From: a plasmid
NCBI RefSeq assembly: GCF_056746865.1
Contig: NZ_JBWKMP010000008.1
Direction: 5' to 3' (one strand)
DNA length: 4,315 bases
The notes below the pieces were generated by a model that ran no database searches, was not told the DNA's origin, and worked only from the letters and a program-made list of their open reading frames with translations. Positions 560-4,053 of this stretch are shown piece after piece. The position numbers and the translations under genes are program-made. The number at the start of each line of letters is the position of its first letter. Position 1 is the stretch's first letter.

Positions 560-754
560 TTATGTTCCTGTTTCACTTTCAGTCTCAAAGCGAACCTGGA
601 TGCTGTTCTGGAGTTCTTCCGCGAGTTCGTGCAGTCGTTCGCACATGGCCGCCTGTTCGTCGGCATCCAGAGCATCCAGTTTTTCAAGCAGTGTCAGGCT
701 CTGGCTTTTGATAAATCGCGCCATATTCAGCGCAGTTTGTTGCTGTTTGTTCAC
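560..754 (-). CDS. rop: Rop/Rom, the RNA I-RNA II pairing modulator protein (64 aa, GTG start)
   Basis: Translation MNKQQQTALNMARFIKSQSLTLLEKLDALDADEQAAMCERLHELAEELQNSIQVRF... aligns by eye with pBR322 Rop (MTKQEKTALNMARFIRSQTLTLLEKLNELDADEQADICESLHDHADELYRSCLARF...). GTG start as in pBR322 rop. GGAG/GGAAG motif just upstream on the - strand. Position and orientation relative to ori match pBR322. Confidence 0.92.
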   Translation of the reverse strand: MNKQQQTALNMARFIKSQSLTLLEKLDALDADEQAAMCERLHELAEELQNSIQVRFETESETGT

Positions 755-1289: not shown

Positions 1290-1520
1290 TGAGTCAGGGA
1301 TTCACGAACTGAAAATGTCCGAAAATGTGTCTCATGGGCACCGTATGCGCCCAAACCGATCGCCATTCACTTTCATGCATAGCTATGCAGTGAGCTGAAA
1401 GCGATCCTGACGCATTTTTCCGGTTTTCGCTTGGTAAAACATCTCTTTTTGCGGTGTTCGCGGCAGAATCGCGTTCAGCGCGTTTTAGCGGTGCGCGTAA
1501 TGCGACGTTATGGTAAATGA
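1290..1520. other. cer-like plasmid multimer resolution site: accessory region with ArgR-box-like palindrome (about 1376-1393, atgcatagctatgcagtg) and XerC/XerD core at 1490-1518 (GGTGCGCGTAA-tgcgacg-TTATGGTAAAT)
   Basis: Core arms match the Xer family (dif GGTGCGCATAA / TTATGTTAAAT; ColE1 cer GGTGCGTACAA / TTATGGTAAAT as I recall). Flanking gcgttcagcgcgttttagcggtgcg resembles ColE1 cer. ARG-box-like dyad lies about 110 bp upstream, the expected geometry. Confidence 0.75.
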
Positions 1521-1535
1521 GGCTGTTGAGTTATT

Positions 1536-1564
1536 AATGTTATGTCGTAATGTACGTATATAAT
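1536..1564 (+). promoter_or_regulatory. Candidate sigma70 promoter for the small ORF: consensus -10 TATAAT (1559-1564), weak -35 (ttaatg, 1536-1541)
   Basis: Perfect TATAAT hexamer within gtacgtatataattc. The -35 is weak. Inferred from sequence only. Confidence 0.4.
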
Positions 1565-1650
1565 TCAGGCGAAGATGAGAAAAGATGAATAGATCTGATA
1601 TGAATTACCATGATTACTCATGGACGGCTGTACAAGGAGATAATCCACGA

Positions 1651-1878
1651 ATGACTAAGCTAGATGCCACGCGCTTTAGCCGTCATGAGGGTTATGAGGT
1701 GTTAGATTTGATTAATTCCTTCCAGGCCAAAGGGGGTGGTGCTCTGACGCTAAAATCACAGCAGATTATCGAGTGGATGCTACATGAACGCCTGCCATCC
1801 AATATCCAGGGGCGAGCTCAGGTTAAAGCGTGGGTGGTTGATAACTTCTCGCAAATGAAGGATGGTTATCCATTCTGA
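1651..1878 (+). CDS. Small hypothetical protein (75 aa from ATG 1651; the in-frame ORF extends to ATG 1585, giving 97 aa), function unknown
   Basis: Strong Shine-Dalgarno AAGGAGA (1634-1640) 10 nt before ATG 1651. Clean intrinsic terminator immediately downstream. I do not recognise the family and see no obvious helix-turn-helix signature. The longer 1585 start has a weaker RBS. Confidence 0.55.
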   Translation: MTKLDATRFSRHEGYEVLDLINSFQAKGGGALTLKSQQIIEWMLHERLPSNIQGRAQVKAWVVDNFSQMKDGYPF

Positions 1879-1879
1879 T

Positions 1880-1906
1880 AAAAAGCCCGCTACAGCGGGC
1901 TTTTTC
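1880..1906 (+). terminator. Rho-independent terminator after the small ORF: stem agcccgc / gcgggct, loop taca, T-run; A-run upstream
   Basis: Seen directly: aaaaa-agcccgc-taca-gcgggct-tttt(t), starting 2 nt after the stop codon. Confidence 0.8.
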
Positions 1907-2015
1907 ATGAGCTGTGCTCAATGAGGCATTATGGTAAATTGTTATGGAGTGGGCATGTCTGTATATGATGCCTGGTGGTATGATTTTGTTTGTAACACTG
2001 GAAGGTTGTTGGAAT
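1907..2015 (+). promoter_or_regulatory. Upstream region of the endonuclease gene, containing TTATGGTAAAT (1929-1939; identical to the cer XerD arm, and readable as an extended -10 TGgTAAATT) and RBS GGAAGG (2000-2005)
   Basis: Sequence reading only. The promoter is not experimentally defined. Confidence 0.35.
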
Positions 2016-2939
2016 ATGGATTTAACAAATATTGAATTTATTAATGATGCCGCAATAAATAGGAGGCGTTACTGGACTAATGAAATTGTCAAATTAAGTG
2101 GGCATTTTGTTAATGACTCCAGTAGGGTTGAGGAGGAAATTATTTATGAAGTTTCCAAATCTGGATCTCAGGCTTTATTGGACCACCTTCGATTATGCAC
2201 AGCCATTCCTGAATCATATGAGCATGATTCAAGCGAAGAAAAGTTATATTCAAAGTATACAGACGCATTGATTTCTGAATGTTTTAAGTTTTTTGGTTTG
2301 AATAGCATTGTGTTAACTGAGAGGGCTGATGCGGCAGATGTAGAAGTTGTATGTGATAGTTATTCTTTTGTTGCTGATGCTAAAGTTTTTCGGTTAAGTC
2401 GAACAGCTAAAAATCAGAAAGATTTTAAAGTTCAAGCAATGGATGGTTGGAGGAATACTAAAGATTTCGCCATGGTTGTTTGTCCAATATATCAGCTTCC
2501 AGTTAAATCAAGTCAAATATATCAACAAGCTATTCTTCGCAATGTGTGTGTGTTTACTTATACTCATTTAGCTGTTCTGGTAAAGTATGCTGACATTGTT
2601 GGTAGTGATGTTAGGATATTGTTAGAGGAAATATTCAGATCTGTCATACTCATGAATCCAAGTAAGGATAGTGTGCAGTACTGGACTATGATTAATAGAA
2701 CGATGTTGAATTATGATAAGAGAATAGAAAAACTTTGGATTGATGAGCGAATTGCTACATCAGAGGGTATCTATGTGCTGAAAAAGATGGCAATAGAATA
2801 CCTCTCTTCCGAGAGAGGTAGAATTCTAAGCATGAGCAGAGAAGAGGCTGTAAGAGCTTTGATTAAAATGAATAAAATTGAAAGTAGAATTGAGCAGATT
2901 AAAAAAGTGACAGATAATAATATTCTGTCACTTAAATAA
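2016..2939 (+). CDS. Type II restriction endonuclease, HindIII family (predicted AAGCTT specificity); 307 aa from ATG 2016, with the open frame extending upstream to 1944
   Basis: Translation contains ...SFVADAKVFRLSRTAKNQKDFKVQAMDGWR..., which matches my memory of the HindIII catalytic region (ADAKSFRLSRTAKNQKDFKV, PD-D/ExK active site), plus further collinear similarity (EEKLYSK..., SREEAVRALIK...). Length is close to HindIII (300 aa). Start at 2016 is preferred because the 24 upstream codons look non-native. This would correspond to the EcoVIII-type enzyme if my recollection of pEC156 is right (unverified). Confidence 0.88.
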   Translation: MDLTNIEFINDAAINRRRYWTNEIVKLSGHFVNDSSRVEEEIIYEVSKSGSQALLDHLRLCTAIPESYEHDSSEEKLYSKYTDALISECFKFFGLNSIVLTERADAADVEVVCDSYSFVADAKVFRLSRTAKNQKDFKVQAMDGWRNTKDFAMVVCPIYQLPVKSSQIYQQAILRNVCVFTYTHLAVLVKYADIVGSDVRILLEEIFRSVILMNPSKDSVQYWTMINRTMLNYDKRIEKLWIDERIATSEGIYVLKKMAIEYLSSERGRILSMSREEAVRALIKMNKIESRIEQIKKVTDNNILSLK

Positions 2940-3854
2940 TTATTTGTTTAATCTCTTTATACTGGTCTCTACATATGTAGGGTTTATTTCGAAACCAATA
3001 TAATCCCTACCTAAATCTTTCGCTGCTACCAATGTAGAACCACTGCCACTAAAAGGGTCAATGACTAATTGACCTTTTTGTGTTGTTAATTCTATAAGTG
3101 TTTTCATTAAGGCTACAGGTTTTTGTGTTGGGTGTAATCCACTTTCATTGCTGGAAAATCCAGCTGTAATGACATTTTCAGGTTTGCCATTTCTTGCTAC
3201 AAATGCATCTTGATTATAAGCACCGACACCATGAATAATTGCATTATCTGCAATTGTGCCGCCAATTTTATATGGTTTAGAGAACCATAGTATGGGTTCA
3301 AAGGTTGGTTGTAGATTTCCAACTCGCCATCCATTCCATTTTTCTGCGTTTAATGTATCCCCGCGCCTTTCGTAAACGCAACTCAACCTTTGGGCTCTGT
3401 GAGGGGCTTTTACTCTCATCCATGCAATTATATCGCGAAGATTGAATCCAGCATCTTCCATTGCACATATGCATCGATGAGAAAATCTTCTGCCTGCAAA
3501 AATAATTGCACTGGCACCTGGTTTTAATACTCTGAACCATTCAGTAGCCCATTCTTCACACCATTGCTGATATTCTAATGGTATTTTCTTATCAGCCTCT
3601 GACCATCCATTTATTGGTTTTCCTCTTTTTTTAAAAATAGCACCTGCGTTTTTCTGCGCAGGGCTTGAACCTAGGTATGCGTTATTTGAGTTATTATGTA
3701 GCACATCCCAGTCTTCTGCTCCTATCCCATAAGGGATATCACTGAGTATTAAATGTGCATATTGTGATGGGAGTTTTTTTATTAATGATATCGAGTTACC
3801 ATTGGTAACGGTATTCTTTTTTATTTCATCAGGTAATTGGATCTTGTTTAACAT
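2940..3854 (-). CDS. DNA methyltransferase, beta-class (motif IV near the N-terminus, motif I near the C-terminus), amino-methyltransferase (N6-adenine by analogy to M.HindIII); 304 aa
   Basis: Motifs seen in the translation: LILSDIPYG (motif IV, DPPY-like), HPTQKP, VIDPFSGSGSTLVAA (FxGxG AdoMet-binding motif I). RBS AGGAA upstream of ATG at 3854 on the - strand. Convergent partner of the HindIII-like endonuclease. Confidence 0.9.
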   Translation of the reverse strand: MLNKIQLPDEIKKNTVTNGNSISLIKKLPSQYAHLILSDIPYGIGAEDWDVLHNNSNNAYLGSSPAQKNAGAIFKKRGKPINGWSEADKKIPLEYQQWCEEWATEWFRVLKPGASAIIFAGRRFSHRCICAMEDAGFNLRDIIAWMRVKAPHRAQRLSCVYERRGDTLNAEKWNGWRVGNLQPTFEPILWFSKPYKIGGTIADNAIIHGVGAYNQDAFVARNGKPENVITAGFSSNESGLHPTQKPVALMKTLIELTTQKGQLVIDPFSGSGSTLVAAKDLGRDYIGFEINPTYVETSIKRLNK

Positions 3855-3948: not shown

Positions 3949-4053
3949 AAAGAAAAAACCGCCTTGCAGGGCGGTTTTTTCAAGGTTCAAAGAACTTGCA
4001 GGTTTTTGAACCACGGTAACTGGCTTTGTGGGAGCGCAGTCACCAAAATCTGT
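3949..4053 (-). ncRNA. RNAI: RNA I, the antisense copy-number control RNA (about 105 nt), complementary to the 5' end of RNA II
   Basis: 5' end placed by analogy with pBR322 RNA I (acagtatttggtatctgcgc... corresponds here to the reverse complement of gcgcagtcaccaaaatctgt). 3' end at the shared terminator hairpin. Confidence 0.8.
3953..3980 (-). terminator. RNA I terminator hairpin (aaaaaa-ccgcc-ttgcag-ggcgg-tttttt), which also forms the 5' stem-loop of RNA II
   Basis: Seen directly; equivalent to the pBR322 aaaaaaaccaccgctaccagcggtggtttgttt element. Confidence 0.8.

Follow-up and report, generated by a model that had tools for sequence, protein, structure and literature searches.

Why does the XerD arm of cer recur, letter for letter, in front of the endonuclease gene of a small plasmid? 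The window analysed here, a stretch of 4315 bases, is a complete circular ColE1-type plasmid of the pEC156 type with the EcoVIII restriction-modification (R-M) system, in line with the descriptions in PMC4743918 and PMC6456624, and several 4315-bp plasmids from E. coli and Salmonella, with annotated genes for a HindIII-family endonuclease, a methyltransferase and Rop, are 100% identical to it. In this window the 11-mer TTATGGTAAAT occurs exactly at 1508-1518 and at 1929-1939, both times on the plus strand, and there is no third copy. By analogy with related plasmids, we think it fairly probable, at roughly two chances in three, that the second copy belongs to an accessory-less XerC/XerD core-type site at 1911-1939, and that this site is the downstream junction of a cassette placed by Xer recombination between cer and the EcoVIII genes. 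The features on which the argument turns are the following:

560-754, minus strand: rop
1293-1489, plus strand: cer accessory sequences, recognised by a profile match and an ArgR box
1376-1389: ArgR box TGCATAGCTATGCA, within the cer accessory region
1490-1518, plus strand: genuine cer core, with XerC arm, 7-nt central region and XerD arm
1519-1910, plus strand: small-ORF cassette, with promoter-like elements, a 97-aa ORF and an intrinsic terminator
1911-1939, plus strand: secondary Xer core-like site of 29 bp, without accessory sequences
1964-1984, plus strand: candidate -10 elements of ecoVIIIR, TATGAT at 1964-1969 and TGgTATGAT at 1976-1984
2025-2939, plus strand: ecoVIIIR, HindIII-family endonuclease, with its start at 2025
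2940-3854, minus strand: ecoVIIIM, methyltransferase, convergent with ecoVIIIR, taken from the ORF list and the RefSeq annotation of identical plasmids
3950-4051, minus strand: RNAI of the ColE1 replicon (Rfam RF00106, 85.8 bits), just before which the cargo stops in this map

RNAI was the sole finding of the Rfam scan, weak matches at 1798-1908 being due to a terminator hairpin. Judged from the 44% coverage of plasmid matches, the match to the backbone would restart at about 3935. The G+C content, 0.44-0.48 before the second site, falls to 0.35 there, on entering the R-M genes.

The first copy of the 11-mer lies in a complete cer. Its core consists of the XerC arm GGTGCGCGTAA (1490-1500), the central region TGCGACG (1501-1507) and the XerD arm TTATGGTAAAT (1508-1518), and the XerC arm scores 16.6 bits against a matrix derived from 13 genuine XerC arms. 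A profile built on 48 accessory regions from other plasmids, run over the whole window, matches 1293-1489 only (E = 1e-38), and the ArgR-box pattern is likewise found at 1376-1389 and nowhere else in the window.

The second copy is the right-hand part of a comparable arrangement, namely GCTGTGCTCAA (1911-1921), TGAGGCA (1922-1928) and TTATGGTAAAT (1929-1939). Its XerD arm agrees in 11 of 11 positions with the XerD arms of the resident cer and of the further genuine sites of ColE1 cer type that we collected; its central region is one base off the TGAGGCG of genuine cer sites and, like that of the resident cer, begins with TG. The left arm agrees with GGTGCGCGTAA at 7 of 11 positions and stands at the same 7-nt distance from the XerD arm; the similarity between the two sites reaches leftward over 27 nt at 78% identity (1492-1518 versus 1913-1939). 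With 3.7 bits in the 13-arm matrix, GCTGTGCTCAA ranks among the top 1.2% of window positions, which at p ~0.01 is modest evidence when taken alone, and it departs from the canonical GGTGCG at two of the six positions, placing it among the weaker left arms of its kind. As direct repeats 421 bp apart, the two sites enclose an ORF (1585-1878) and its terminator (1880-1905). A sequence-only reading of this DNA had proposed an exact, directly oriented repeat that brackets the small ORF and its terminator and sits within a Xer-core-like site rather than being a stray repeat; all of this is borne out, the last part by the leftward similarity at the right spacing.

That the repeat arose by chance and has no biological meaning is scarcely credible. 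Exact repeats of this length are in themselves nothing special here, as three further direct repeats of 11-12 nt occur in this AT-rich window, and the general rarity of a recurring 11-mer, which had been put forward as an argument, thus carries little weight. What counts is the identity of the 11-mer as a XerD arm: this specific sequence appeared in none of 200 dinucleotide-preserving shuffles, the match runs on to the left with the arms correctly spaced, the site falls on the boundary between cassette and R-M system, and the same architecture recurs in many plasmids. The heptamer AATGAGG, also cited as lying beside both copies, is indeed present at 1516-1522 and 1920-1926; since it follows one 11-mer and precedes the other, and is found at least twice in 32 of the 200 shuffles, we dropped it as evidence.

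Core-like as it is, the second site is, by its sequence, not a cer. Sites of the cer type have some 180 bp of accessory sequences beside the XerC arm, with an ArgR (or ArcA) box and a PepA-binding region. Neither the accessory profile nor the ArgR-box pattern, both applied to the whole window, finds anything beside it; the DNA that precedes it is the 3' end of the small ORF and its terminator, past which the site begins after 5 nt. Multimer resolution is therefore not expected of it. We also considered that sites of this kind might be truncated cers, and sought a terminator-like hairpin just before genuine XerC arms; the five regions folded gave z-scores between -1.4 and +0.1 and lent the idea no support.

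The position of the 11-mer just ahead of ecoVIIIR raises the question of whether it is there as a promoter element, with TGgTAAATT (1932-1940) as an extended -10 and the identity to a XerD arm incidental or secondary, an alternative that the sequence-only reading had itself named. The rare Arg codons of ecoVIIIR are reported at positions 16 and 17 (PMC6456624), where they fall only if translation starts at 2025; the start of a homologue aligns with the same position. The fragment 1814-2103 drives an ecoVIIIR::lacZ fusion (PMC6456624). A promoter for ecoVIIIR is needed between 1905, where the terminator ends, and 2025, and this interval includes TGgTAAATT, which matches four of six hexamer positions plus the TG and ranks in the top 0.6% of plasmid positions. 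There is a precedent as well, the EcoRI promoter PR within the cer core of pMB1 (PMC7315355). A promoter and terminator scan of 1380-2100 returned nothing, missing even the obvious terminator under its stem and loop rules, and we replaced it with our own heuristic scoring and folding. In this ranking, TGgTAAATT (7.2) comes third after TGgTATGAT at 1976-1984 (9.5) and TATGAT at 1964-1969 (9.2), the latter aligning with TGtTATGAT in a sister lineage of the R-M system; the pEC156 literature covered here gives no mapped transcription start for ecoVIIIR (PMC6456624). Among the sites, the base right after the 11-mer, on which a -10 would critically depend as its last position, may be T, G, C or A; in pKPN2 the next gene at the same 11-mer (dcm) is convergent, and in locus L005 the 11-mer is followed by a terminator. 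A promoter role therefore fails to explain why the 11-mer is there, and we regard that reading as improbable, whereas a secondary, dual use of the site as a promoter element is possible.

Between the two sites lies a single ORF, at 1585-1878 on the plus strand and coding for 97 aa. The protein corresponds over its full length to phrog_33929 (1e-35), a PHROG without annotated function, and has no match in Pfam, in NCBIfam or in the phage collection. A 56%-identical homologue is encoded on Cupriavidus pHG1, between helicase/ATPase genes and an Avs1 defence system. The ORF is preceded by putative promoter elements, read by eye as TTGAGT (1526-1531), TAATGT (1548-1553) and TATAAT (1559-1564), and followed by the intrinsic terminator at 1880-1905, with a folding energy of -18.8 kcal/mol (z -5.5).

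One related plasmid, L001 (NZ_AP022102.1), carries the same cassette and terminator behind cer, with the ORF frameshifted. Homology stops at 1906, 5 nt before the XerC-like arm, and no core follows; a Xer site is thus not invariably present at this junction, and the half-site on the left, at 1907-1928 (22 nt), is without a known source. The sequence-only reading had named relatives in which the small ORF lacks flanking Xer-like sequences as a ground for refuting it; in this plasmid none is present on the right, and cer stands on the left.

In other plasmids of the family, cer itself is the seam between backbone and cargo. Along the backbone, hundreds of ColE1 plasmids agree with the window at 99-100% as far as position 1519, which directly follows the XerD arm; beyond it they part into cargo that consists mainly of toxin-antitoxin, abortive-infection-type or R-M genes. 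Eight plasmids with the closest backbones, selected solely by their match to the cer region, each have a different cargo right behind the XerD arm, for example HigA/RelE, an AbiE-like toxin with a PP2C phosphatase, the Eco29kI R-M system or a Kpn2kI-type R-M system. Where the XerC arm is identical and the flank matches, the central region changes with the cargo, TGCGACG in one case and TGAGACG in another, which places the crossover inside the core. A secondary site is present in one of these eight; it is found also in the pEC156 type and is absent from the related L001. On sequence grounds, such seams would be the places where host Xer recombination has swapped cargo in many related plasmids.

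The EcoVIII cargo follows the same pattern. As a whole, comprising small ORF, second site and R-M genes, it is joined to four distinct XerC arms with distinct accessory regions, the arms being GGTGCGCGTAA, GGTGCGTGTAA, GGTGCACGCAA and GGTGCGTACAA. A sister lineage of the HindIII-family R-M system, 77-87% identical, has the XerD arm of a genuine cer directly in front of it in L002, L003 and L007; the core there reads GGTGCACGCAA, CGGATG, TTATGGTAAAT, and the endonuclease gene starts about 115 nt downstream. The second XerD arm of our window, 85 nt before its own endonuclease gene, holds the equivalent position. For this particular site, neither an empty allele nor one with other right-hand cargo was found among plasmids, E. 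coli genomes and metagenomes, and the nearest approach to an occupied and empty pair for the pEC156 cassette is this cer of the sister lineage in front of its R-M genes, at 77-87% identity.

A complete pair exists for the Kpn2kI/Ecl18kI R-M family, where the alleles read as follows:

pKPN2 and pECL18 (empty): accessory region, XerC arm, TGCGACG, TTATGGTAAAT, ccatatgggggggg, R-M genes
L086 and several 6268-bp plasmids (occupied): the same cer, a 699-bp insert, the same ccatatgggggggg, R-M genes
The 699-bp insert: a cassette with a 151-aa ORF, terminator, GGTTCGTGTAG, TGAGACG, TTATGGTAAAT
L090: the 151-aa cassette and site as in L086, then unrelated DNA

In pKPN2, pECL18, L086 and the 6268-bp plasmids alike, ccatatgggg directly follows the last TTATGGTAAAT. 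The two alleles thus differ by exactly one cassette and one core, with the XerD arm duplicated and no other scar, and judged from the sequences this is what site-specific insertion at cer would be predicted to leave. Our window parallels the occupied allele in design, with cer, a small cassette, a secondary core and an R-M system in succession.

Sites of this kind form a class. A search for short similarities retrieved Klebsiella and Citrobacter plasmids of equal layout. Behind cer they have an unrelated small ORF with a terminator of the type GCCCGC-N4-5-GCGGGCTTTTT; 3 nt further on comes a degenerate XerC-like arm, which a 7-nt central region separates from TTATGGTAAAT, and different DNA lies beyond. 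Pattern scans yielded 7 loci in species-representative genomes (Enterobacteriaceae, Pantoea, Mixta, Klebsiella, Buttiauxella) and 63 in metagenomes, about 5 of which look like chance; as the scans required an exact XerD arm and the GCGGGCTTTTT terminator, the conservation of these two elements is in part ascertainment and the counts are not to be read as frequencies. Together, at least a dozen unrelated cassette families share the order of cer, one or more ORFs, terminator, degenerate XerC-like arm, central region of 6-8 nt, TTATGGTAAAT and variable cargo; among their products are a 90-aa Cys-rich, a 151-aa acidic and a 72-aa Gly-rich protein as well as RelB/RelE-type pairs. In 57 loci with at least two XerD arms, all 133 sites are in direct orientation, and arrays reach three sites in L006 and four in L010.

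Units are shuffled across these sites. Eleven left-hand units each have from two to five right-hand partners, and four units on the right have two left-hand partners each; every break lies in the stretch that runs from the XerC-like arm to where the XerD arm ends. The central region goes with the right-hand cargo in some families, CATGCGAGCAA for instance occurring with TGAGGCG, TGACGCG, TGGGACG or GGGATG, and in others it stays with the cassette; either strand exchange may therefore define the junction. Of 47 distinct left arms that are non-canonical, about 36 fall in the top 5% of background with the XerC-arm matrix, and by this measure they are degenerate but real XerC-type arms.

For the pEC156 type, these comparisons suggest the following course of events. 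An ancestral ColE1 plasmid would have had cer directly abutting the R-M genes, and recombination inside the core would have joined this cer to a DNA circle, or to a second plasmid, that brought the cassette and a degenerate XerC-like half-site of its own. The upstream product site would have kept the resident accessory sequences and the canonical XerC arm and remained a working cer, and the downstream one would have combined the cassette's poor XerC-like arm with the genuine right half of cer, that is, central region and perfect XerD arm, with the R-M genes behind. The proposal that the cassette was acquired by Xer recombination, already made from the sequence alone, remains the best reading, given the position of the second site at a module boundary and the recombination breakpoints in related plasmids. 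XerCD is suggested as the agent because the plasmids in this comparison encode no recombinase, the XerD site is duplicated exactly and the breakpoints lie in the core; we infer this, together with insertion as the direction and any present-day binding or activity, and for this site in particular the argument leans on analogy and on the sister lineage. The partner may have been a small circle or a whole plasmid that was later reduced; we favour the small circle, by analogy, on account of the recurrent position next to a terminator and of the scar-free occupied and empty pair. Recombination of the cer type needs accessory sequences on both partners (PMC9113270; PMC11724359), which speaks against an accessory-less site as a partner.

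The course of events could also have been a different one, in which two plasmids formed a cointegrate by cer x cer recombination and the second replicon was deleted together with its accessory sequences, so that the second site would be a leftover with a decayed XerC arm on its left. Such cointegrates, formed at Xer and oriT sites, are the published model for cargo exchange between ColE1 plasmids, as other papers cite it (Tran et al., 2012; Zakharova et al., 2002), and they would explain the perfect right half equally well. Random deletions, however, would hardly stop time and again right behind a terminator and 3-5 nt short of the XerC arm, in a dozen unrelated cassettes; the occupied and empty alleles differ, without a scar, by one cassette and a core; and secondary sites have left arms that deviate systematically from the canonical form and move together with their cassette. 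We therefore regard a cointegrate origin as unlikely.

Acquisition of the cassette by Xer-mediated insertion may, in turn, be one instance of something more general. Tentatively, as a serious possibility on which we would not insist, ColE1 plasmids of Enterobacterales may host a recombinase-less cassette system that is run by the XerCD of the host, with the small ORF of pEC156 as one such cassette. The unit would consist of a promoter, one or more ORFs, a terminator and, at its end, a degenerate XerC-like half-site of its own; insertion would take place at the XerD side of cer, giving direct arrays of up to four cores, and each insertion would leave behind an accessory-less secondary core that could be reused for the exchange of cargo.

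Judging from its composition, the second site is probably almost silent today: XerD would bind it well and XerC weakly, and recombination with cer should be rare, given that an ArgR/PepA accessory region is lacking and the central region is 7 nt long. It had also been proposed that the cassette could be excised by Xer recombination, and one may ask whether XerCD recombines cer and the second site to an appreciable extent, releasing a 421-bp circle with the small ORF. The direct orientation, the identical XerD arms and the TG at the start of both central regions would allow for it, and directly repeated Xer sites are known to delete the gene that they flank if both carry accessory sequences (PMC9113270). 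The second site, however, has no accessory sequences, and with 29 bp and a 7-nt central region it falls outside the class of 28-bp sites with a 6-nt central region, the only one that has been shown to act in an FtsK-dependent, accessory-free manner (PMC11724359). The natural record offers nothing for excision either. About 20 natural copies are on record, in plasmid entries, in E. coli genomes and on metagenome contigs, from three continents and several species. All of them keep the two sites at a distance of 421 bp, and a deletion variant with cer joined to the R-M genes was found neither among these copies nor in a collection of 72,556 plasmid records, in 5426 complete E. coli genomes or in metagenomes. 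The excision proposal is not supported, and we consider ongoing excision very improbable. A published cer-minus derivative, pRB1, forms multimers; its deletion end-points are unstated and it is thus uninformative on the second site alone.

How, then, does the locus relate to known systems? With the ColE1 cer and related multimer-resolution sites of plasmids (psi, mwr, parB), the second site shares the identical 11-bp XerD arm; it has a XerC-like arm 6-8 nt away, the orientation of the resident cer and a central region of the sequence type known from genuine cer sites. It differs from them in its degenerate XerC arm and in having neither the accessory region of about 180-200 bp nor the ArgR box.

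Elements known as IMEX, such as CTX-phi, TLC-phi and the gonococcal genetic island, integrate at dif by means of the host Xer recombinases. The cassettes described here resemble them in having no recombinase of their own and in being flanked, in direct orientation, by one good and one degenerate host-Xer site, which in our window are cer at 1490-1518 and the site at 1911-1939, with only the 97-aa ORF between them. They also resemble them in that occupied and empty alleles differ by the element and one site, as seen in the parallel Kpn2kI/Ecl18kI family. In contrast to IMEX, the target is a plasmid cer and not the chromosomal dif, the cargo consists of single-gene cassettes of 0.4-1.4 kb and not of phages or islands, and no activation factor is evident.

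The pdif modules of Acinetobacter, which are bounded by inverted sites and occur in Rep_3-type plasmids, are likewise plasmid modules bounded by XerC/XerD-like sites that occur in varied contexts and often carry toxin-antitoxin or accessory genes. Here, by contrast, the 57 multi-site loci have all of their 133 sites in direct orientation, a complete cer comes first, and the replicons are ColE1 plasmids of Enterobacterales. The resemblance to a dif module suggested by the sequence-only reading accordingly does not fit this locus, where both sites are on the plus strand and only one has accessory sequences.

The use of cer as a crossover point for cargo on ColE1 plasmids, including the R-M systems of pKPN2 and pECL18, is credited by citing papers to Zakharova et al. 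(2002) and Tran et al. (2012). The cointegrate model of these authors concerns the same plasmids and the same role for cer, with R-M and other cargo; as the citing papers give it, it deals with complete cer sites on whole plasmids, and accessory-less secondary cores or single-gene cassettes do not appear. In the EcoRI system of pMB1, the R-M genes also lie just downstream of a Xer core with a promoter overlapping it (PMC7315355), the difference being that the core of pMB1 belongs to a real cer, whereas that of our window is a second, accessory-less site with better -10 candidates downstream. Integron cassettes, finally, are comparable in forming arrays of direct sites (up to four here, in L010, and three in L006) that part short single-gene units with a half-site at the 3' end; they differ in that the cassettes considered here have no dedicated integrase and no attC hairpin, bring along promoter and terminator, and would depend on the XerCD of the host as recombinase.

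A literature search with the 11-mer itself returned nothing relevant. The pEC156 literature covered, which does not include the original papers of 2001 and 2015, mentions a single cer, and no description of accessory-less secondary cores directly repeated with cer on small enterobacterial plasmids was found in the literature searched, the coverage of which is incomplete. According to a survey from 2025, all Xer sites on small enterobacterial plasmids had accessory sequences (PMC11724359), a statement on their universality that the secondary cores described here qualify.

For pEC156 itself, this reading sets the small ORF apart as an acquisition of its own and fixes where the EcoVIII cassette begins on its left. 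More broadly, ColE1-like plasmids rank among the major carriers of genes for defence, toxin-antitoxin systems, bacteriocins and resistance, the capture of which has been explained only loosely, by cointegrates at cer and oriT. If the reading proposed here is true, core-only Xer sites behind small cassettes would provide a precise and testable mechanism for the modularity of ColE1 plasmids, and mobile elements that exploit Xer would extend from the chromosomal dif and the plasmids of Acinetobacter to the best-studied plasmid family.

Directly after the cer XerD arm, a common motif, (G/C)G(G/A)GCTGT(T/C)GA, is found in the window (1519-1535) and in four of the plasmids or contigs fetched for comparison (L017, L039, L065 and L086), and the cassettes that share it, with examples such as gaggctgttgag, ccgggctgttgag and ccgagctgtcgaa, encode unrelated proteins. 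This cassette-start motif could be either a common promoter region or a XerD-side extension of the Xer site. A resembling GAGCTGT lies at window positions 1908-1914, immediately 5' of the second, accessory-less site. At 1942-1947, 2 nt 3' of the second XerD arm (TTATGGTAAATTGTTATGGAG), TTATGG forms a partial third copy.

Elsewhere, two of the fetched sequences carry arrays of direct Xer cores, which set apart units of 230-450 bp:

L010, sites at 83, 1868, 2257 and 2493: four direct Xer cores
L006, sites at 1233, 1647 and 2099: three direct Xer cores

Some of the secondary cores in these arrays are not preceded by a terminator, which is therefore a common but not an obligatory element. Terminator-adjacent lone sites with 6-nt central regions, such as the one in which CGGATG separates GCGGCGTACAA from TTATGGTAAAT, were found in longer, single-site contigs (L013, L014, L016, L021, L034, L042 and others), one of them a 417-kb Buttiauxella scaffold. 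They could represent the 28-bp accessory-free, FtsK-dependent type.

Downstream of the second site, the endonuclease gene begins too early in some RefSeq records, which place its start at upstream ATGs (window 1944-2939) and so list products of 331 or 324 aa. Its true start is at 2025, as follows from the published Arg16/Arg17 codons and from the start of the homologue, so that ecoVIIIR spans 2025-2939 on the plus strand (304 aa). Two types of repeat were observed in and around the restriction-modification genes:

2898-2940: inverted repeat with 17-nt arms and a 9-nt gap, at the convergent junction of ecoVIIIR and ecoVIIIM, likely a bidirectional terminator common to both genes
2037-2048 and 3778-3789: two exact copies of the 12-mer TTTATTAATGAT, near the 5' ends of the endonuclease and methyltransferase coding regions, a repetition probably due to chance in AT-rich DNA

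Fragments identical to pEC156 were also found, at ∼1.2x coverage, in the assemblies of two betaproteobacterial isolates, on contigs of Zoogloea sp. 1C4 (L011) and Thauera sp. 2A1 (L015), where they most likely represent contamination and not true hosts.

The small-ORF cassette of NZ_AP022102.1 is probably a pseudogene; its ORF is broken at 2190-2210, where a run of Gs is one base too long, is recovered by tblastn only in two pieces, and has a sole annotated CDS of 132 nt. The small ORF has only one distant homologue, with 56% identity, in Cupriavidus necator pHG1 (L091, 3492-3794); it is flanked on one side by AAA-ATPase/helicase genes and on the other by an anti-phage system of AVAST type 1 (Avs1a/b), which places it in the setting of a defence island.
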